Counted from the stretch's first letter, positions 1-50,059 are shown. The stretch is 64,000 bases of DNA from Bacteroidia bacterium (GCA_965216465.1 CBDCFW010000003.1:1-64000), one strand, 5' to 3'. Numbers and translations: made by a program. The notes: generated by a model not told the origin, from the sequence alone.

Positions 1-418
1 ATAGTTTAAGGCTTGGTTATTTTTGGTAAAGTGTTCACCAACTTTACGTGCTAAAACTGCACCAAATATGAGAGCAAGGCCCCAGTTTACAAAGGCAACA
101 GCTATTGTAGAAAAGCAGACCAGAAAAGCGGCTTGAGCATTATTTTAATTGGCTGAAGTAGTGAGTTAGTAATTTGATTGAAGAAGTTGCTTAGTGCAAG
201 TACATGGCCCAATACAAGCATTAACATCATTTGAAAAGGCAAAAGCCAGTAGGCCTTCATTCCACAGACCTTTTTGCCACGACATGAATGCTTCACCTGG
301 ATCATCAGACAAGGTCATAACCAGTAACATGGTCAATATGGTTAAGATTATGGCTATACTAAAAAGGCGAGGGAAGCAAGCTTCTAAACCAATTGGAATA
401 TCGTTCGGTAAATTTCAT
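1..418 (-). pseudogene. atoE: Short-chain fatty acid transporter (AtoE/TIGR00366-like), 5' part, with ~3 homopolymer frameshifts; runs off window start
   Basis: ATG at 418 overlaps the GAF gene stop. Stitched frames read MKFTERYSNWFRSLLPSPF/SIAIILT...GLLAFAF/QMMLMLVLGHVLALS.../NAQAAFLVCFSTIAVAFVNWGLALIFGAVLARKVG. Shifts fall in A/T runs near 361-365, 234-237 and 143-146. Confidence 0.7.
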
Positions 419-42544: not shown

Positions 42545-42561
42545 GTTCAAATCTTGAATGC

Positions 42562-42688
42562 AAAATATCGAGTGACTATCTACTTAACTGCAAATATGAT
42601 GAGATAAGATTGTAGTGCTGAGATAGCCACCCAATATTTTAACTAACCTTATTAATTTATAAACCGCCGCACGATCTCTCATTGCGAC
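42562..42688 (-). ncRNA. Predicted sRNA-1 (~127 nt): 5' hairpin, AU-rich linker, 20-bp 3' stem
   Basis: Own box and -7 element (TTAGTTCG, 42693-42700). Stems 42666-42688 and 42562-42581/42621-42640, whose mismatches are all G-U pairs only on the minus strand. No ORF. Confidence 0.6.
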
Positions 42689-42721
42689 ACTGCGAACTAA
42701 GCTAAGAACGAACGCTTAATT

Positions 42722-42741
42722 TGTAGTAAATCATTGATTTT
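42722..42741 (-). promoter_or_regulatory. Upstream activator box, copy 1 (AAAATCAATGATTTACTACA)
   Basis: 29 nt between box and end of the -7 element, as in three other copies. Confidence 0.75.
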
Positions 42742-42780
42742 TATGAAGTAGAACTTTTTATGTCTGATTGTAGATGTGAA

Positions 42781-42872
42781 GTTGAGAAGCTAGCCTTCGA
42801 GATCATAACTCCCTTACGTTAGAATGTTCGGCTAGCCCCCAACATCGTACTAATAACTACTATACTTAATGT
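42781..42872 (-). ncRNA. Predicted sRNA-2 (~92+ nt): single-stranded 5' seed plus long hairpin
   Basis: Own box and GACATTTG -7 element directly after a terminator; stem GTTGGGGGCTAGCC/GGCTAGCTTCTCAAC (42781-42843) with minus-strand G-U pairs. Confidence 0.6.
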
Positions 42873-42906
42873 ATCTTCAAATGTCAGATTCTTGAATGAC
42901 TTAAAA

Positions 42907-42926
42907 TGTAGTAAATTGTTGATTAT
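42907..42926 (-). promoter_or_regulatory. Upstream activator box, copy 2 (ATAATCAACAATTTACTACA)
   Basis: 29 nt to the end of GACATTTG. Confidence 0.75.
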
Positions 42927-42933
42927 TAGGCAT

Positions 42934-42963
42934 AAAAAAAGGCTTTGGAAGTCCAAAGCCTTT
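42934..42963 (-). terminator. Rho-independent terminator of the 45809-42983 operon
   Basis: GGCTTTGG-ACTT-CCAAAGCC followed by T7 on the minus strand. Confidence 0.85.
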
Positions 42964-42982
42964 AATTTCTTGTTGCGATCGT

Positions 42983-44155
42983 TTAATCTTGTTTAACAAA
43001 TGGCAACATTTGTGAAGCTTGACGCGGAACGTCAATCTTCAGGTAATACATTCCGTGACTCAAGTCGGAAGTGTTTACGGTATAGGTGTTTCCAGATTTT
43101 ATTTGCGTCTGTATATCAACAATCTTAACAGGTTGACCAAGTGTGTTTTGTATTGAAATGATAGGGTCGTGAACGAGCAATAAGTTAGAGGCGTCATTGA
43201 TTTTAAACTTAAGCTCATATGTTACTACAGTCGGGAAGACCTCAATTTGAACACCGTCAATTGTTCGGTCTAAAATTGCAATACGATGGTATTCATGGCT
43301 TTCGTCAAAGTCAACTTGTTTCAAGCGATAGAATACTTGATTGATGCCATGCAGGTTTTTGTCCTGAAAGCTATATTGAAGTATTTGATTTGAGTTACCG
43401 TTGGGTGCAGCACTCTTCACAACCCCAATTTTCTCAAAAAATGTTCCATCTAAACTCCGTTCAACTTCAAAGTGTTGGTTGTTGATTTCAGTAGCTGTTG
43501 ACCAATAAACCAGAGCCTCAGTTTCTGAGGTCCACCTAGCATCAAAGCTTAAAAGTTTAACTGGCAATGGAATCGTGTCTGAAGACTGCGTTAAATTGTA
43601 CGACGTAAATATTGTTGAAGGATTAGGTCTCATGGTTATGTTGGGTATAAAACCATTAACGGTCATGGTGCTGTCAAATCCTGTTGGTCCAACTCCGTTA
43701 ACGGCTTGAAGCATTCTAACAGTGGCTCCAGCAGTTGGATTCGAAAACTTTAATTTGTATATCGTATCAATGGTACCTGCGGTGGAAACATTTCCAAAAT
43801 CCGTTGGTCCGTTAATGGTATAATCGATAAATGCCAAATTATCCGGATTAGATCCCATCCCACCAGCTACAGTGGCTGCATCAAATGAATTACCTAAGTT
43901 CCATGTTCCTTGCACATCGGTTTTAGTTATTGTGCCTAAATCTTCGTCGTACCACAACGATATTCTTGAATTATTGGTAACTCTCATCCCTGTTGCTGCT
44001 GGGTTTGCTGGCCATTCAAGGTAAACAGCAACTTCATCAAAGTTAGTGCCTATTGGAACCATTTTGACTTCTGGAGCTTGGGAATAAACTCTTGATCCAG
44101 CTAGGCATAAAAGGCTCATAAAAACGATTTTACTTATTCTCATTTTAATTTTCAT
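42983..44155 (-). CDS. T9SS cargo protein: N-terminal beta-rich (possibly cohesin-like) domain, LPV-type Ig domain and CTD
   Basis: Signal peptide; LPVKLLSFDA..W.TATEINN..FEVERS.DG...FYRLKQVDFD; G.YYLKI...FVK CTD. Confidence 0.8.
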   Translation of the reverse strand: MKIKMRISKIVFMSLLCLAGSRVYSQAPEVKMVPIGTNFDEVAVYLEWPANPAATGMRVTNNSRISLWYDEDLGTITKTDVQGTWNLGNSFDAATVAGGMGSNPDNLAFIDYTINGPTDFGNVSTAGTIDTIYKLKFSNPTAGATVRMLQAVNGVGPTGFDSTMTVNGFIPNITMRPNPSTIFTSYNLTQSSDTIPLPVKLLSFDARWTSETEALVYWSTATEINNQHFEVERSLDGTFFEKIGVVKSAAPNGNSNQILQYSFQDKNLHGINQVFYRLKQVDFDESHEYHRIAILDRTIDGVQIEVFPTVVTYELKFKINDASNLLLVHDPIISIQNTLGQPVKIVDIQTQIKSGNTYTVNTSDLSHGMYYLKIDVPRQASQMLPFVKQD

Positions 44156-44183
44156 TTTGCGTGTTGATTTATATTTTGTTTGA

Positions 44184-45809
44184 TTATGGTAATTGTTGTG
44201 TTAAACCTGAAAAACCTTGTGAACCTCCAAAGAAGGTGTTTGAGGGATGACTTAAAATGACATTCAGAATCTCAGTGACATCATTATCTGTTCCTTCATA
44301 TTTTACATCTCCATCCATATTAATGTCGCTCATAGAATAGACTCCCGAATAATTAAACCCTTGAGATCCACCCAAAAATGTATTGCCAGGTGCTGCCAGA
44401 ACGATATTCAAGATTTCTGTAACGTCATTTCCGGAGCCTTCATAGAGTATAGATTCATCGTAGTTTACATCTCCAACCCACATGGCGTTTACGCCAGACT
44501 GACTTGCTGCAGCATTTGTACCAAATAGCGATACTGTACTGAAATCAAGTGATTTCCCTGACGATGTGAGTTGAATCGGATTTGCGGCCATTATACCAAA
44601 GTGGTTACGATGACGTACAGATACATAAACAGAATCGCTAACAGGACTCGAGAAACAAAGAGCACTGGTGCCGTCTGTGCTCACAATGTCTCCATCTCGC
44701 TGAATTAATGCCGACTGAGTTTCGAGAACTGTACTGCTGTTTGAAGTGTCTCGAAGTTCGATCATAACCCAATCTACTATAGCGTCGTTGCCAGTAACGC
44801 TCAATACGGTAGTTGTAGTTGTCTCACCACCACCATTTCCAGCATGAGAAAAGGCTGTGAGGGAAGTATAGGGCTCAGTAAGCGGAATTAAATTGTTGGA
44901 CCGCAGATGATCTGACATTGTAGTTCCAGAGCCGCTAATAAGTGCACCTTGCAAATAAGCCTTCGCCGATAAGCAAACATCTCCAATTTCTGCTAGGGCA
45001 TACACTTCAAAGGTGTTTGGAATAAGAGCAGCATCGGTAGAAATGGTTCCTGAATCTACAATTGATGAGCTTCCTGCAAAAGAAAGTGTACTCTGACCAG
45101 CAAGCATGGCTGTGGCATCTACTGTAGATTCAATTTGAACCCATTTTGATCCGTCCCAACCTACGATAGTTAAGTTTTGAATATTTCCTGAGGTAAAGGT
45201 GTTCATGTCGTCTGACAAGTTCCACGAAAGGGTAATTATTGCACTGTTTGAGCTGTTAATGTCCCAGTATCCTGAATTGTTCACACTTCCTATGCCGTCT
45301 TCAACACTGTCTGTATTAAATGTAGATCCTCCTGGTAGAGCTCCATAATCTATACCATCAATTCGGTCGGTTATGGCCATTGTTGGATCGGCATTGTAAT
45401 AAGCTACATTAGCATCTCCACCAACGCTGCTTAAGCCAACTGGATTATAAGTTCCATTATCTCCAACGGGAAAAACAAAGCCTCCTGTGTGATAACATCT
45501 AACATAGCCATCAACATGTGCGTTAGTATTTGCATTTTGCCATGATCCTGTGGTCGTAAAACTTAAGTAGCCAGGAACACTAGAATCTCGATCTGTTCCG
45601 ACAAGTCCAGAGTAGATGCCAGAGCCTGTTGTGAAGTTGTGTTCTCCAAAAATGGCCATTTCACCGCCTTTGGTAATATTAATTGAGGCAAAGGAGCCAG
45701 ATTGTCCAAATGTGCTTGTACTAACTAAGGTTAACACACAGACGGCCATCCCAGCTAGCAATTTTCTTATACCATAAAAATCGCTTAGTAGTTTGTTTGT
45801 TTCTTTCAT
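44184..45809 (-). CDS. Secreted adhesin-like protein with a duplicated dockerin-like Ca-binding C-terminal module; no T9SS CTD seen
   Basis: Signal peptide; VDGYV..FPVGD..YWDI domain; YLQGAL...VDWV.IELRD...RHRNH; two 40-aa DxNxD repeats. Confidence 0.75.
   Translation of the reverse strand: MKETNKLLSDFYGIRKLLAGMAVCVLTLVSTSTFGQSGSFASINITKGGEMAIFGEHNFTTGSGIYSGLVGTDRDSSVPGYLSFTTTGSWQNANTNAHVDGYVRCYHTGGFVFPVGDNGTYNPVGLSSVGGDANVAYYNADPTMAITDRIDGIDYGALPGGSTFNTDSVEDGIGSVNNSGYWDINSSNSAIITLSWNLSDDMNTFTSGNIQNLTIVGWDGSKWVQIESTVDATAMLAGQSTLSFAGSSSIVDSGTISTDAALIPNTFEVYALAEIGDVCLSAKAYLQGALISGSGTTMSDHLRSNNLIPLTEPYTSLTAFSHAGNGGGETTTTTVLSVTGNDAIVDWVMIELRDTSNSSTVLETQSALIQRDGDIVSTDGTSALCFSSPVSDSVYVSVRHRNHFGIMAANPIQLTSSGKSLDFSTVSLFGTNAAASQSGVNAMWVGDVNYDESILYEGSGNDVTEILNIVLAAPGNTFLGGSQGFNYSGVYSMSDINMDGDVKYEGTDNDVTEILNVILSHPSNTFFGGSQGFSGLTQQLP
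44211..44474 (-). repeat. Two 120-bp intragenic repeats (44355-44474 and 44211-44330) encoding dockerin-like halves
   Basis: GDVNYDESILYEGSGNDVTEILNIVLAAPGNTFLGGSQGF versus SDINMDGDVKYEGTDNDVTEILNVILSHPSNTFFGGSQGF. Confidence 0.85.
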
Positions 45810-45947
45810 TCAAATTGTATTTAATGTAGTTAATAAATAGTACTCTGATTTTCACAGCAATTGGTCGAACCTTATGCATTGTGGCCGAACCCAATTGGTC
45901 TCATCGAGTAATCAACGGCAAAAGTGTATCGCGAGAAACAGTCGATT

Positions 45948-45967
45948 TGTAGTAAATCGTTGATTTT
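45948..45967 (-). promoter_or_regulatory. Upstream activator box, copy 3 (AAAATCAACGATTTACTACA) for the secreted-protein operon
   Basis: 29 nt to the end of CACTTTTG. Confidence 0.78.
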
Positions 45968-46008
45968 GAAGAAAAGAGAAAAATTTTAAAATAAAAGCGG
46001 GTATGAGC

Positions 46009-46659
46009 TTAGTGAATTAGGTCGTTCTCGATTCCAAACAGGGTTAATTCTACCATATTGTTAACATTCAGCTTTTGAAATATGCGGTGACGATATGTGC
46101 CAATCGTAGAAGAATGGATGTTCAACTCATCTCCTACGTCTTTCGATGTATAACCATTGATGTAAAGTAACATAACCTCCATTTCTCGGGTGGTCAACTT
46201 GTCTAAAAGTTCATTACTTGTAGTTGAGATTGAAGATGACAATTTAGACACCAACTGTGTACAAACATATTTTCGACCTTCAAGAACTTCTCTTATGGCA
46301 TAAATAATATCCTCGAAAGGGGCATTTTTAGATATGTAACCCTTGGCTCCAGCTTTTATCAGTCGAATCGCAAAGGCCTCAGCAGGATACATTGACATTA
46401 TCAATACCTTTAAGTCGGGATAGGTCTCCAGAATTCTACTAATGCCTGTAATAGGGTTGCTATGCTCCATCTTTAGATCAGCCACCAACAAGTCATATTT
46501 TTTTTGGCTGAGCTTCTGCATGGTCTCTTCATAGCTACTTACGCCGTCAATTTTAGACATCGAATTGATGCTTCTAAGACGCTGAATGAGGCCTTGACGA
46601 ATTATTTCATGATCGTCAGCAATTAAAAAGTGTAGTGGTTGGTCCTGATCATTTAACAT
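46009..46659 (-). CDS. NarL/LuxR-family response regulator (GacA/UvrY-like)
   Basis: IADDH, DLKM, SMYP..FAIRLIKAGAKGYISK; LTTREMEV...STIGTYRHRIFQKL HTH. Confidence 0.9.
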   Translation of the reverse strand: MLNDQDQPLHFLIADDHEIIRQGLIQRLRSINSMSKIDGVSSYEETMQKLSQKKYDLLVADLKMEHSNPITGISRILETYPDLKVLIMSMYPAEAFAIRLIKAGAKGYISKNAPFEDIIYAIREVLEGRKYVCTQLVSKLSSSISTTSNELLDKLTTREMEVMLLYINGYTSKDVGDELNIHSSTIGTYRHRIFQKLNVNNMVELTLFGIENDLIH

Positions 46660-46710
46660 AAGTATAGACTAAATAATACTGCAAATTGAAGCCTATTATC
46701 TCAATTTTCT

Positions 46711-46730
46711 TGTAGTAAATCATTGAGATT
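46711..46730 (-). promoter_or_regulatory. Upstream activator box, copy 4 (AATCTCAATGATTTACTACA) for the response regulator gene
   Basis: 29 nt to the end of TCAATTTG. Confidence 0.75.
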
Positions 46731-46777
46731 TAGGGGTTATATAGCAAATCATAACCTCAATTTAAGTGATTTGTTTG

Positions 46778-46797
46778 AAAATCAATAATTTACTACA
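46778..46797 (+). promoter_or_regulatory. Upstream activator box, copy 5 (AAAATCAATAATTTACTACA), divergent
   Basis: 28 nt to the end of CTTAATTG; precedes the 46844 ORF. Confidence 0.72.
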
Positions 46798-46843
46798 AAT
46801 CGATTGAGCGACTAAACCTTAATTGCGGTTAAAAGAAGTAGCC

Positions 46844-47077
46844 ATGCTTGAAACTAAGGAGATTAACTATAAGCCGGAGTCCTTGTCTTCAAAATCGATT
46901 GGTATTCAGTCCTATGCAGACCGTAGAGTCAAACTTAGCAGGCGTGTGAATCGGGATTATACCGTGCTTAGGATCATTTTCAAACCCAAGAATTTAATCC
47001 TCATTGTCGTATTTATGAATCTGGTCGTATTAGACACTTTAATTCAATCATTTAAACGAAAGAAGAAAACTAGATGA
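46844..47077 (+). CDS. Small basic membrane protein (77 aa)
   Basis: ATG at 46844 after the boxed promoter; one hydrophobic helix; 4-nt overlap with the next ORF. Confidence 0.5.
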   Translation: MLETKEINYKPESLSSKSIGIQSYADRRVKLSRRVNRDYTVLRIIFKPKNLILIVVFMNLVVLDTLIQSFKRKKKTR

Positions 47078-47346
47078 AAACTAATTCTACAGAAACTATA
47101 GATCAACGCAAATATTTGTATACCTCTTTGTTTCGAAGAAAACTGGTATGCGAATTTGTTCCATGGCAAACAGAATCTCAATTAACATTAGCTACACCAG
47201 ATGGTGAAGAAGTCTTGTCGCTAGCAATAGCATCAAATACACGCCGTATTGCGCTTGAATTGGATCAACTCAATCCTGGGTTTTATCGATTAAGCCTTGG
47301 AGTAGTAGGAGTTGCCACAATTTCGCAATCCGTAGTGCTTTTTTAA
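47074..47346 (+). CDS. Small protein resembling a stand-alone T9SS CTD/Ig fold
   Basis: L.L.TPDG.EV...I.L.LDQLNPGFYRL.L......QSVV pattern; no signal peptide. Confidence 0.5.
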   Translation: MKTNSTETIDQRKYLYTSLFRRKLVCEFVPWQTESQLTLATPDGEEVLSLAIASNTRRIALELDQLNPGFYRLSLGVVGVATISQSVVLF

Positions 47347-47464
47347 TTTGCAGTTGATTTATATCTCATTTGAGATTTTCTATATGCTTCTTTAATAAAA
47401 ATTATAAGAATGAGCATCTAAATATATACAGATGCAAGGCTCAAACAGCAGAACTTTGTAATGA

Positions 47465-47608
47465 AAATTATAGCCTTAGCTTGGGGGCGGAAGAAGAAAT
47501 TATCAATGGGTTAATATGTTTCTCGTTCCCCCTAGTGAGCCCAGCATATGGATGTAAGTTCCTCAGATATTAACCATTGTATCATTGTAAGGTGACTGGG
47601 CTGTTTTT
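47465..47608 (+). ncRNA. Predicted two-hairpin structured RNA with inter-hairpin complementarity and a U-tract
   Basis: Stems 47480-47535 and 47538-47602 followed by TTTTT; 47504-47517 is complementary to 47567-47579; candidate -7 element GAACTTTG at 47451-47458. Confidence 0.45.
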
Positions 47609-47715
47609 CAACCACATATATCAAATAATTGGCATTTTTTAACATCTTTTTTGATGTTTCTTTATATAGATTTGTATATACAATTAAATACAAAACTGTT
47701 ACAAATTTGACCTGT

Positions 47716-48024
47716 ATGTCATTCGATCCCAACCATAATCACTCAATCACATTAACGGAAGCCGGTAATATGACTGAGGCCTTTAGAGTATCCAATCCAA
47801 CAGAAAAGATTGGAGGCTTTTTTGGTAAGAAAGCAATTCAAGATATTTTGGACCAAACCGATTGTGTAGGTTTGAAATTTTACTTTGCACGAAATAATGG
47901 TGACCTTACTTTGGTTGTTTGTGGTGCCAAAGCCAATCAAGACGATCTATATAATGGAGAACTCGCCGAATTTTCTTACGTCGACCCACCTTACAGTAGC
48001 TCATCCAATCCGTTGAATAGCTAA
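47716..48024 (+). CDS. Small cytoplasmic protein (102 aa) heading the membrane protein-HK-RR operon
   Basis: ATG at 47716 after TAGATTTG; I...A......F...GGFFG...I..IL.Q..CVG...Y.....L.LV.......D....DPP pattern. Confidence 0.75.
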   Translation: MSFDPNHNHSITLTEAGNMTEAFRVSNPTEKIGGFFGKKAIQDILDQTDCVGLKFYFARNNGDLTLVVCGAKANQDDLYNGELAEFSYVDPPYSSSSNPLNS

Positions 48025-48027
48025 CCA

Positions 48028-48687
48028 ATGGAAGATTACTACTTGAGTGTTAGGATTATAACCTATAGCTTGTTGATCCTTGTTTCATTATTTCGATTGC
48101 TGCAAGAACGCACTCGAGTAGTAATCTTGATTTTGATTTATGCACAGATTTGTCTACTGACTGACTTTCTTGATGTTGTATACATTTCATCAAATCTTGA
48201 ATTGTATTCAATTTTTAATTTGTGTCGAATCTTAATTATCTATTTTTTAATATCTCCTCAATTTTCAAATAGACTTATTCTTTATCTTAGCTTCGGTTTT
48301 TTTGTACTCATTACGGGACTTGCATTTCTAGGAACGTATAATTTTGAGTTCCTAAATTCTCATACGATTTATACTTCGAACTATGGATTTTTAGATACTT
48401 ATGAAAATAACTTACTTCTGCTGATACAAACCGTGGTCGTATTGCCTCTGTTATTTTTTGCGGTATATAAAGCAATAGCAACACCCACTACAAAATCACA
48501 GGTAAGATATTATGCAACCTGCTTTGCTTTTATCTTATCTTATGCCGGAATGCTGTTTAGTACGATTTTAGGAAATTTTATAATTCTTGATTTTAAGCTT
48601 TTTATTGAAATTTCAACTTTGATACTATACACAGTCTTTTTACTTTCGAATGGATTTCTACTTGGGGGACTTTTATGGAAGAAATAA
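48028..48687 (+). CDS. Polytopic (~6-7 TM) membrane protein, putative detached sensor subunit
   Basis: Hydrophobic throughout; 3' end overlaps the kinase start. Confidence 0.75.
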   Translation: MEDYYLSVRIITYSLLILVSLFRLLQERTRVVILILIYAQICLLTDFLDVVYISSNLELYSIFNLCRILIIYFLISPQFSNRLILYLSFGFFVLITGLAFLGTYNFEFLNSHTIYTSNYGFLDTYENNLLLLIQTVVVLPLLFFAVYKAIATPTTKSQVRYYATCFAFILSYAGMLFSTILGNFIILDFKLFIEISTLILYTVFLLSNGFLLGGLLWKK

Positions 48688-49421
48688 AACTGGCGGTTTA
48701 CTTGGGTTCGTTCTTGTTGCTGGCAATATTGCTAGTAACTGTGCTTATAATCCTTTTTGCTCAAAAAAAGAAACGAGAAGCCCTCCTCCAACTAAAAGAT
48801 AGTGAAATCGAACATCAAAAAGAGCTAGCCATCAACAATATCCAAGCTCATGAAGATGAACGTCAGCATATTGGCCAAGAATTGCACGACGATCTCGGGC
48901 AGCAGCTTGCATCTGTAAAAATGCAAATGGAATCTGGCGTAATCAGCAATGACCTATCAAAAGTGGAATTAGCGATGGATAACATGTCTCAAGCCATTTC
49001 TAAGGTGTCAAACATCTCCAGACTGCTTTATCCTGTAGTGCTTAAGAAGTTCGGCCTAGTAAAAGCTTTAGAGCATTTGACAGCCAATACAGAAGCAGAT
49101 ATTACGTTGGCCATCCACGACGAAATATCAAAAATTGAAGATTACAATATGCATTTGCATATCTATCGTATATATCAAGAACTAATTTCCAATAGTATAA
49201 AACATAGTAAGAGTACATCGATTCAAATGAAATTATCCAAAGAAAGCGAAGGATATTTGCTGAGCTATTCCGATGATGGAGTAGGGTTTGACTATGAAAA
49301 CTCAAACTATGGTCTTGGTTTGCACAATATAAAAATCAGAGTTGACAGCATCGGAGGTAATCTTGAAATTAAAACAGCCCCTGATGAAGGCTTTAACTGC
49401 ACAATAACATTTAATCCATGA
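48675..49421 (+). CDS. HisKA_3 sensor histidine kinase with one N-terminal TM and no sensor domain
   Basis: EDERQHIGQELHDDLGQ, YRIYQELISNSIKH, DDGVGF, GLGL.NI..R. Confidence 0.92.
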   Translation: MEEIKLAVYLGSFLLLAILLVTVLIILFAQKKKREALLQLKDSEIEHQKELAINNIQAHEDERQHIGQELHDDLGQQLASVKMQMESGVISNDLSKVELAMDNMSQAISKVSNISRLLYPVVLKKFGLVKALEHLTANTEADITLAIHDEISKIEDYNMHLHIYRIYQELISNSIKHSKSTSIQMKLSKESEGYLLSYSDDGVGFDYENSNYGLGLHNIKIRVDSIGGNLEIKTAPDEGFNCTITFNP

Positions 49422-50059
49422 ACACAACAACCATTTGTATAGCAGATGACCACGAAATAGTTAGAGAGGGATTTGTTACCCTACTGAATTCTTTTGATGA
49501 ATTAGAAGTGCTTTTTGATACTTCTAATGGACAAGAGTTGCTAGACCGGCTGAAAAACTCAGCCCTGCCTGATGTTATTTTACTTGATGTTGATATGCCC
49601 ATATTAGACGGCGTTGAGACCTTGAAGGCATTAAGGTCAGCCTATGGAGACAAAGTAAAGGTGCTTGGCTTATCGATGCACGAAGAATACTTTATTGTTC
49701 AAAATCTATTGGAACTTGGTGCGAATGGATTTATATCTAAATCTGCATCGGCCAAACAAGTAAAGAATGCAATTTTAACCGTAATGGAATATGATTTCTT
49801 TTTAAGTCCTCAAATGTCGAAGTCATTATTTGGAAGTAAGTTCAAAGACAGTGCAGGCTGTGCTGAACTTTCAAAAGTAGAAGAAGAAATAGTGGTGTTG
49901 ATTTGTAACCAATTGAATAACAAGCAAATAGCTGCAGAATTGAAGCTTTCTCCAAACACGGTAAATGCCTACCGAACCAAAATATTAGAAAAAACGGAAG
50001 CGACCAATGCCGCAGGACTAGTTGTTTACGCTATCCGTAATGGTCTCTTCAAGGTCTGA
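49418..50059 (+). CDS. NarL/LuxR-family response regulator (cognate of the kinase)
   Basis: IADDH, LLDVDMP..DG, LSMH, GANGFISK; IAAELKLSPNTVNAYRTKILEK. Confidence 0.92.
   Translation: MNTTTICIADDHEIVREGFVTLLNSFDELEVLFDTSNGQELLDRLKNSALPDVILLDVDMPILDGVETLKALRSAYGDKVKVLGLSMHEEYFIVQNLLELGANGFISKSASAKQVKNAILTVMEYDFFLSPQMSKSLFGSKFKDSAGCAELSKVEEEIVVLICNQLNNKQIAAELKLSPNTVNAYRTKILEKTEATNAAGLVVYAIRNGLFKV

Follow-up and report, generated by a model that had tools for sequence, protein, structure and literature searches.

The question raised by the locus described here is whether a sensor operon in a Bacteroidia bacterium controls, partly through a small RNA (sRNA), which proteins are placed on the cell surface or secreted. 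The locus occupies positions 42,545 to 50,059 of a 64,000-nucleotide stretch (GCA_965216465.1 CBDCFW010000003.1:1-64000), the whole of which is called the window; its genome (3.23 Mb, 100% complete, with gene calls covering about 92%) is designated G000, and C3 and C6 are contigs of it. A preliminary description of the window had listed an operon of a 102-aa protein, a membrane protein, a kinase and a NarL-family regulator, a second NarL-family regulator on the other strand, five copies of a sequence box, two boxed non-coding hairpins and a boxed secreted-protein operon; open reading frame (ORF) calling and profile scans found all of these parts in their reported places (Table 1). One contig spans the stretch, with no differences, in two public runs of one study, which may be where this DNA came from; three contig sets of that study confirm the DNA, and among public runs none holding RNA was listed. 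Our reading is that the box regulon and one predicted hairpin transcript, RNA1, may act as a switch between sets of surface and secreted proteins, with the sensor operon (called the cassette) as the likely input, and we give this reading a probability of about 0.5.

The box is the 16-bp core TCAAYRATTTACTACA, written in the direction of transcription, and has nine copies in the genome, five of them at this locus. A looser pattern, TGTAGTAA-N4-TTGA, recovers the same nine boxes genome-wide, and allowing one mismatch or four free positions gives no further copies in the genome. An order-4 Markov model predicts 0.03 copies, for a motif that was picked after being seen. All nine boxes are intergenic, lying outside the called genes, and xT[TC]G stands at exactly +26..29 of the box in seven of them (background 0.036, p ~2e-7 after 60 offsets). 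The five boxes of the locus had been described as lying at a fixed distance from -7 promoters; the five copies and the common spacing hold, except that box 5 is one base short. Housekeeping promoters of Bacteroidota have the -7 consensus TAnnTTTG (PMC7366714). Its TAnn half is complete in only two of the nine boxed promoters, as would be expected of activator-dependent promoters. From the box-to-core spacing and the -7 consensus, an 18-bp site is placed at about -50 to -33, with its centre near -41.5, which is the position of a class II activator.

Three operons encoding type IX secretion system (T9SS) cargo, the gene of the second regulator (RR2) and the two non-coding hairpins lie behind boxes. 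Elsewhere in the genome, a box stands ahead of each of two paralogous operons with T9SS-type C-termini in their downstream genes; another is followed by a BetR-domain gene, and a further one has an M23 peptidase gene on one side and a small gene on the other. The paralogous operons (C3:230333 and C3:281566 (-)) begin with a cysteine-rich secreted protein of 303-308 aa, followed by proteins with the T9SS C-terminal domain (CTD). In both, ATG comes 4 nt past the -7 core, at the predicted start, which counts as one observation since they are paralogues, and their mRNAs are probably leaderless.

The box might instead not be a site for a response regulator, and we consider this improbable; it would then be an upstream element of an alternative sigma factor, or an IHF/HU-like site joined to a half-site for some other factor such as the BetR-like helix-turn-helix (HTH) protein. 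The site is non-palindromic, a fixed downstream spacing is typical of sigma factors too, and one box does precede the BetR-domain gene. In five of nine copies the left part of the box agrees with the IHF consensus, WATCAA-N4-TTR; however, this loose pattern matches 538 sites in the genome and therefore cannot explain the specificity of a nine-copy element. Moreover, at a NarL gene the half-site forms an inverted repeat of 18 bp, and what follows the boxes is the -7 core of housekeeping promoters (PMC7366714). In its right half, TTACTACA, the box is similar to the corresponding half of the 18-bp UvrY site TGTAAG-N6-CTTACA, of which less symmetric versions are bound too (PMC4682653), and this likeness argues for a binder of NarL type.

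Three NarL-type regulators of this genome are candidates for that binder: RR1, encoded in the cassette, RR2, and RR3, a paralogue of RR2 encoded elsewhere. RR1 and RR2 had been described as GacA-like, with UvrY-like recognition helices; membership of the UvrY family is something that their scores (111 and 133 bits, respectively, against the NF007018 cut-off of 280) do not bear out. In a tree of 28 NarL-type proteins RR1 falls among the cassette regulators, and RR2, RR3 and a protein of G014, another genome of the genus, form a separate clade (100/99); a motif filter dropped some neighbours from this tree, for example the divergent regulators of loci L048 and L050, which score better to RR1 than to RR2. 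RR2 and RR3 both bear the half-site, with the same spacing, in their own promoters. Genome-wide, the half-site pattern TTWCTACA-N25-YTYG has 20 matches and its N21 counterpart 3; in four relatives the spacing is not enriched. The recognition helices of RR2 and RR3 differ, no kinase gene adjoins either of them in this genome, and RR1 is the only one of the three with an adjacent kinase. Relatives of RR2 in metagenomes and other genomes stand mostly behind kinase genes or lack the box, so the box is not assignable from them. In our judgement RR2, alone or together with RR3, is the leading candidate at somewhat less than even odds; RR1 is a rather unlikely binder, and an RR1-RR2 pair and another factor altogether are equally doubtful.

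At the RR3 locus (C6:1107868-1108814), RR3 is divergent from the gene of a 413-aa secreted protein; both divergent promoters have the half-site at 25-nt spacing, and a perfect 18-bp palindrome, TGTAG-N8-CTACA, lies between them. A divergent half-site pair in G014 was rejected because it lies inside a coding sequence. As for the typical cassette regulator, 10 of the 20 cassettes from the same class (L040-L059) carry a GTA-N4-TAC palindrome in the 250 nt preceding the small gene, and a scan of GTA-TAC spacers there gave 15 matches at spacer 4 and 1-3 at others; this is likely its autoregulatory site. In the present cassette that site and the customary recognition helix have both changed, which we count in favour of RR1 as the binder. 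The variant GTA-N5-TAC was rejected, the true spacer being 4.

RNA1, which follows box 1, is predicted to fold into a short 5' hairpin, a mostly unpaired AU-rich seed and a 20-bp stem (17 Watson-Crick and 3 G-U pairs) that closes a long loop, with a folding z of -3.81 on the boxed strand (0 of 200 shuffles as good). Its 26-nt seed is also carried by a second, unannotated predicted sRNA, RNA3, which has TAACTTTG upstream and a strong terminator downstream. RNA3 is syntenic in genomes G024 and G447, so that its synteny covers three genomes of two genera, and its TAnnTTTG promoter, an invariant 12-nt seed block and its terminator are all kept; the conserved upstream element differs from the box. 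Other weak RNA3 matches among 66 family genomes were not convincing, and the RNA3 loci have no Rfam match at gathering level.

Complementarity connects this seed with T9SS cargo. At least 10 nt of its complement are present in 22 of 2768 predicted start regions, and 8 of the 22 belong to CTD genes, compared with 168 of 2768 overall (6%; p 2e-5). No shuffled seed out of 300 reached eight CTD genes, and the opposite-strand seed gave none in seven. The enrichment holds within signal-peptide genes (p 2e-4) and with paralogues collapsed (p 6e-4), and along RNA1 and RNA3 it is strongest in the seed windows. Independently, CTAACCT, part of the seed complement, ranks second among leader 7-mers for CTD enrichment (5 vs 2). 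The best sites lie immediately upstream of ATG in cargo genes of 3211, 3966, 1217 and 154 aa. A target site is retained in a similar 162-aa CTD gene of G024, as one of six pattern matches there, and Pfam confirms the CTD of this gene and of one target in G000. The leaders of the boxed operon itself pair weakly with the seed, which fits a switch and proves nothing. The earlier proposal of a NarL-type regulon with a boxed sRNA aimed at T9SS output thus gains backing from predicted seed-to-cargo pairing.

There is in our view a small chance that the hairpins are non-regulatory, being terminator-like or leader remnants, or that RNA1 serves as mRNA for a 32-codon ORF, and that the seed match reflects an ordinary AU-rich leader. 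AU-rich leaders are common, total match counts equal those of shuffles, and RNA2, the second hairpin, folds better on the opposite strand. Rfam gave no match at E<=5 across the window (the presence of the FopS model in the searched copy is unconfirmed), no orthologue of RNA1 or RNA2 at this locus was found, and the RNA1 seed pattern occurs in 1 of 300 other genomes of the class. A remnant or chance leader would, however, have to account for 26 nt of identity with a syntenic unit that has a promoter and a terminator in three genomes, for a CTD enrichment that is strand-specific, and for G-U pairs that favour the boxed strand of RNA1. The 32-codon ORF (window 42682-42584 (-), starting with ATG) was recognized by eye and is not kept in RNA3.

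Base pairing is the likely mode of action of RNA1. In the 100% complete genome PF02599 (CsrA) has no match (control positive in 3/14), Hfq was not found and two RNA recognition motif (RRM) proteins are encoded, which together point to base pairing and not to protein titration. The GacA-Rsm or LuxO-Qrr mechanism that had been suggested for this locus loses its protein partners by the same searches. The proposal of tandem regulatory sRNAs survives for RNA1 and not for RNA2, whose folding is marginal (z -1.9 on the predicted strand, -2.8 on the opposite strand), for which no terminator was found, and whose 5' segment has no significant targets (77/300 shuffles). The two hairpins share a 17-nt arm motif, yet 94 of 1000 shuffles align equally, and their being paralogues was dropped as not shown. 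The first 30 nt of RNA2 (window 42845-42874, -) pair with RNA3 (C6:144125-144180) at -17.6 kcal/mol, a value matched by 0.23% of 12000 random windows and weak after several comparisons, and could serve as a sponge. A third copy of 18 nt of the seed (C3:291497-291514) lies among ORFs that by eye are small and phage-like; its minus-strand complement stands directly before a terminator and forms a duplex of -23.6 kcal/mol, making it a possible sponge of RNA1 and RNA3.

The preliminary description knew of no precedent in Bacteroidota, and this holds in part. Base-pairing sRNAs that act on mRNAs of surface or secreted proteins are already known as FopS/GibS (PMC11697453) and Rfp18 (PMC9723704); in the open-access text, no two-component-controlled sRNA on T9SS cargo was found described. 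FopS and GibS of Bacteroides thetaiotaomicron are paralogous multi-copy sRNAs associated with RbpB, which have different promoters and pair through a single-stranded seed near the start codons of surface-protein mRNAs (PMC11697453). The likeness to RNA1 and RNA3 lies in a shared single-stranded seed complementary to such start regions (in silico here), in seed copies under different promoters and in the presence of RRM proteins. The targets differ, being SusC transporters there and predicted T9SS cargo here, and RNA1 departs from a seed-plus-terminator layout by its long, large-looped stem and also differs in having a regulator-type box. Rfp18 of Flavobacterium, like RNA1, is predicted to reach several mRNAs, of secreted proteases and adhesins, through one region. 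Its deletion changed two mRNAs and lowered the targets, that is, its control is positive, and the available text describes no two-component box (PMC9723704). Both were set beside RNA1 by description, not by sequence; FopS has been deposited in Rfam (PMC11697453), and the sequences of FopS and Rfp18 could change the family assignment of RNA1.

With respect to regulators, BarA-UvrY/GacS-GacA has in common with this locus a NarL-family regulator, the TACA-ending half of an 18-bp site and sRNA genes among the targets (PMC4682653). In the available text, however, the UvrY site lies near -183 against near -41 here, only the right half is alike, the sRNAs sequester CsrA, which was not found here, and the kinase is a hybrid, unlike the simple one-TM (transmembrane) HisKA_3 kinase here, which has no receiver or HPt domain. 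The regulators of this locus consist of REC and GerE domains. The Qrr sRNAs are Hfq-dependent and under a sigma-54 activator, LuxO, while no Hfq was found here.

The cassette, our likely input, is an operon of four genes whose successive stop and start codons abut or overlap: the 102-aa protein, a seven-transmembrane (7TM) protein, the kinase and RR1. A search at E<=0.001 gives 637 representatives of the small protein, which is matched in 55 of 401 genomes of the phylum, this one included. Forty cassette regions were taken from 87 other matches, mostly the best-scoring ones. In all 40 a protein of about 206-246 aa with 5-7 TM segments follows directly behind the small gene; in the same-class loci the next gene is a one-TM kinase in 20 of 20, with a NarL regulator in 19 of 20, and outside the class a longer one-TM signalling protein often takes the third place. 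The synteny that had been proposed for checking across Bacteroidota is therefore real for the four-gene operon, and this genome is the only one in which the box, RR2 and RNA1 were found beside a cassette. Searches of open-access text turned up no account of the cassette. Profiles of both unnamed families gave nothing consistent against Pfam and PDB, and the Atlas gave unnamed Bacteroidota clusters only, with HisKA_7TM as a weak lead at 0.79. Extra tandem 7TM genes are present in some cassettes (L045, L073, L060), and 45 of 150 relatives of the small protein exceed 190 aa, mostly as two tandem domain copies (P0001-P0020). In the genus the cassette occurs in one of 27 other genomes, G014, where an inserted 141-aa ORF separates the kinase gene from that of the regulator, and where the cassette (L094:10300-10650) adjoins an apparent tRNA gene with a duplicated 3' end (by eye), suggesting an integration site.

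The model of the 7TM protein (predicted local distance difference test, pLDDT, 83) aligns over its full length with G protein-coupled receptors (GPCRs) and rhodopsins (best Z 13.6, root-mean-square deviation 4.0, 207 aligned), and its top 50 structural matches are GPCRs, GPCR-like designs or rhodopsins; for helical bundles such a Z, near 13, is a borderline value, and no Foldseek match reached E<=0.001. No lysine is conserved within TM7, which argues against retinal, there is no PDB sequence match, and a protein search with the window 7TM found only itself. The 102-aa protein has a confident predicted fold (pLDDT 93), for which a fold search gave nothing above Z 3.9, and this does not prove a new fold. 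A complex prediction for the two proteins scored 0.00 and speaks neither for nor against their contact. Gene overlap and synteny suggest that the 7TM protein, as an accessory, may control the kinase.

In LiaFSR/VraTSR and UhpABC, a HisKA_3 kinase lacking an external sensor is co-encoded with a membrane protein and a NarL regulator, and the cassette has the same three-part layout. NCBIfam matches to LiaS and UhpB are sub-threshold only, and Pfam and NCBIfam gave no LiaF or UhpC homology for the window 7TM or 40 relatives; the cassette departs from those systems in its accessory part, which consists of a GPCR-shaped 7TM protein from an uncatalogued family and a small soluble protein whose fold has no match. 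Sensory rhodopsins with Htr are similar in that a stand-alone 7TM receptor signals to a separate membrane-anchored partner (PMC13466386), but they differ from the cassette, which has no conserved TM7 lysine and whose partner is the kinase itself and not a chemotaxis transducer.

A receptor-like predicted fold, and a box 5 that could give autoinduction, would also suit peptide quorum sensing with GacA-Rsm- or Qrr-like sRNAs, with the small protein as pheromone precursor, the 7TM protein as its sensor and the sRNAs titrating a protein of CsrA type. Relatives of the small protein add to this, with a hydrophobic N-terminus in 23 of 150 and a C-terminal cysteine pair in 117 of 150. The window copy has neither feature: it has no signal peptide behind the 47667 promoter, it lacks the CPPxC cysteines, and it is predicted to be a stable folded domain, so that the density or peptide sensing suggested earlier appears weak. 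Across the 40 cassette loci no gene for processing or export is recurrent, and in contrast to agr/ComQXPA, no exported propeptide or dedicated processing gene was found here. With CsrA and Hfq not found, and by inspection no GGA in RNA1 and one in RNA2, we regard quorum sensing of this kind as very improbable.

The sequences show the statistics and spacing of the box, the synteny of the cassette, the identity and conservation of the seed and the enrichment in complementarity; we infer transcription of these units, binding to the box, the sign of regulation, the identity of the binder and the link from kinase to box, and propose the following circuit. The input would most likely be the cassette, in which the 7TM and the small cytoplasmic protein would set the activity of the one-TM kinase, and the kinase, as gene order suggests, would phosphorylate RR1. 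A phosphorylated NarL-family regulator from the locus would bind the asymmetric box near -41.5 and activate weak housekeeping-sigma promoters, turning on the three T9SS-cargo operons, RR2, the BetR-like HTH gene and RNA1. The AU-rich seed of RNA1, which is probably a box-controlled copy of the seed of the older unboxed sRNA RNA3, would pair with the start-codon regions of other T9SS cargo mRNAs, including those of the 3966-, 3211- and 1217-aa proteins. Pairing at start regions, and the example of FopS, suggest that this would most likely lower their translation, and the net outcome would be a swap between sets of secreted and surface proteins. The link from kinase to box is the weakest step, and we hold it at slightly under an even chance.

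Several points weigh against this switch. Gene starts and CTD labels come from home-made scripts, and the total number of seed-matched start regions is not above that of shuffled seeds (19/60 reach it), only the CTD share being enriched. Apart from box 5 (46782), with its core one base short, the box at C6:1192550 lacks a -7 core where one is expected. The sensor operon is itself unboxed, with a separate -7 promoter at 47667; feedback on it from box 5 would need read-through over about 900 nt, in which no terminator was found. The window 7TM scores -6 bits against its own family profile and keeps 4 of 22 conserved columns, and it may be re-specified or decaying. GTA-N4-TAC is missing upstream of this cassette. 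Beside the 40 cassettes placed or scored there is no RR2-clade member, and G014, which holds both regulator types, has its RR2 orthologue next to another kinase, on a different contig from the cassette, and shows no enrichment of the half-site spacing (14 vs 14). As for breadth, the box and RNA1 were found in this genome only. The exact box is absent from 40 relatives, GTDB gave eight scattered matches, each single-copy and none at a cassette, two-mismatch counts in three congeners equal those of controls, and with the position weight matrix of the box nothing in the 40 cassette loci exceeds 14, while true boxes score 27-36.

Two neighbours may instead be involved, the box regulon and RNA1 answering to orphan RR2/RR3 through another kinase or a small phosphodonor, and the cassette being an independent, patchy element that landed nearby. 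This is the most serious alternative and is, in our estimate, unlikely. It draws on the common clade and equally spaced half-sites of RR2 and RR3, on the unboxed promoter of the cassette, and on its rarity in the genus, where it lies apart from the RR2 orthologue. It does not account for box 5 facing the cassette with no terminator found between, nor for RR1 having changed its recognition helix and lost the family GTA-N4-TAC site together, and the orphan regulators have differing recognition helices and no adjacent kinase gene. We retain the switch with the cassette as its likely input. Its most complete version would be a single pathway, from a non-retinal GPCR-fold receptor and a new-fold small protein to the kinase and the regulator, possibly an RR1-RR2 heterodimer on the asymmetric box, and on to one cargo set and a recently captured seed silencing giant cargo, with positive feedback on the receptor operon; as a whole we think this improbable, a little less so than any single one of the minor binders named above.

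On the evidence of sequence, the features are real, and the system would be a two-component-to-sRNA control with an uncharacterised receptor module, genome-specific in breadth. In the literature found, control of T9SS concerns secretion components (PorXY-SigP) and one flavobacterial sRNA on secreted proteases. PorXY-SigP of Porphyromonas gingivalis likewise places a two-component system upstream of T9SS output, but in the available text its extracytoplasmic function (ECF) sigma factor acts on secretion components (PMC4800418), whereas the boxed and seed-matched genes here are cargo. As one genome supplies a defined operator together with candidates for its regulator, the seed of an sRNA and named targets among the cargo, the selection of cargo can be tested directly. 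If the kinase-to-box link holds, the boxed promoters would give this widespread and uncharacterised 7TM-kinase cassette its first read-out, and the full pathway, if true, would be a receptor-to-sRNA switch of T9SS cargo in which an old sRNA seed was rewired under a new signal.

Table 1. Features of the locus (window positions) and two related features elsewhere in the genome
Position	Strand	Feature
42548..42690	-	RNA1, predicted trans-acting sRNA; ends inferred
42638..42663	-	26-nt seed of RNA1, identical to G000 C6:144110-144135
42693..42737	-	Box 1 (42722-42737) and core TTCG (42693-42696); predicted promoter of RNA1
42745..42874	-	RNA2, boxed non-coding hairpin, weakly supported; may read through into RNA1
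42878..42922	-	Box 2 (42907-42922) and core TTTG (42878-42881)
42938..42963	both	Bidirectional intrinsic terminator closing the secreted operon, just upstream of box 2
42983..44155	-	390-aa T9SS cargo; signal-like N-terminus, type A C-terminal domain; Por_Secre_tail at cut-off (Pfam)
44184..45809	-	541-aa protein, signal-like N-terminus; first gene of boxed secreted operon 45809-42983
45919..45963	-	Box 3 (45948-45963) and core TTTG (45919-45922)
46009..46659	-	RR2, orphan NarL-family response regulator, REC + GerE (Pfam); clade apart from cassette regulators
46682..46726	-	Box 4 (46711-46726) and core TTTG (46682-46685); predicted promoter of RR2
46782..46826	+	Box 5 (46782-46797), TTG one base short; faces two small ORFs and sensor operon
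46846..47077	+	Putative gene, small ORF of ~76 aa; hydrophobic C-terminal stretch, no family
47074..47346	+	90-aa ORF downstream of box 5, weakly like a stand-alone T9SS C-terminal domain; no signal peptide
47667..47674	+	Full -7 element TAGATTTG, unboxed promoter of sensor operon
47716..48024	+	102-aa soluble alpha+beta protein, unnamed CPPxC family (DPPYS here)
48028..48687	+	219-aa stand-alone 7TM protein; predicted GPCR/rhodopsin-type helix arrangement; divergent positional family member
48675..49421	+	248-aa one-TM histidine kinase, HisKA_3 + HATPase_c only (Pfam), His71; no external sensor domain
49418..50059	+	RR1, cognate NarL-family regulator of cassette, REC + GerE (Pfam)
G000 C6:144095-144232	+	RNA3, unannotated predicted sRNA downstream of sirtuin-like gene (also L113, L114, L115)
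C6:1108143		RR3, orphan paralogue of RR2

Among the remaining products of the locus, the 102-aa and 219-aa proteins match nothing in Pfam, and the 541-aa protein has no family in Pfam or NCBIfam. The leader of the boxed secreted operon, of about 105 nt, contains a direct repeat inside an imperfect hairpin (window 45860-45900, -), with a z of -1.3, which is not significant. The 90-aa ORF downstream of box 5 scores 10 bits against a home-made CTD profile and has no Pfam match; as a lone CTD-like protein, it could tune or interfere with secretion.

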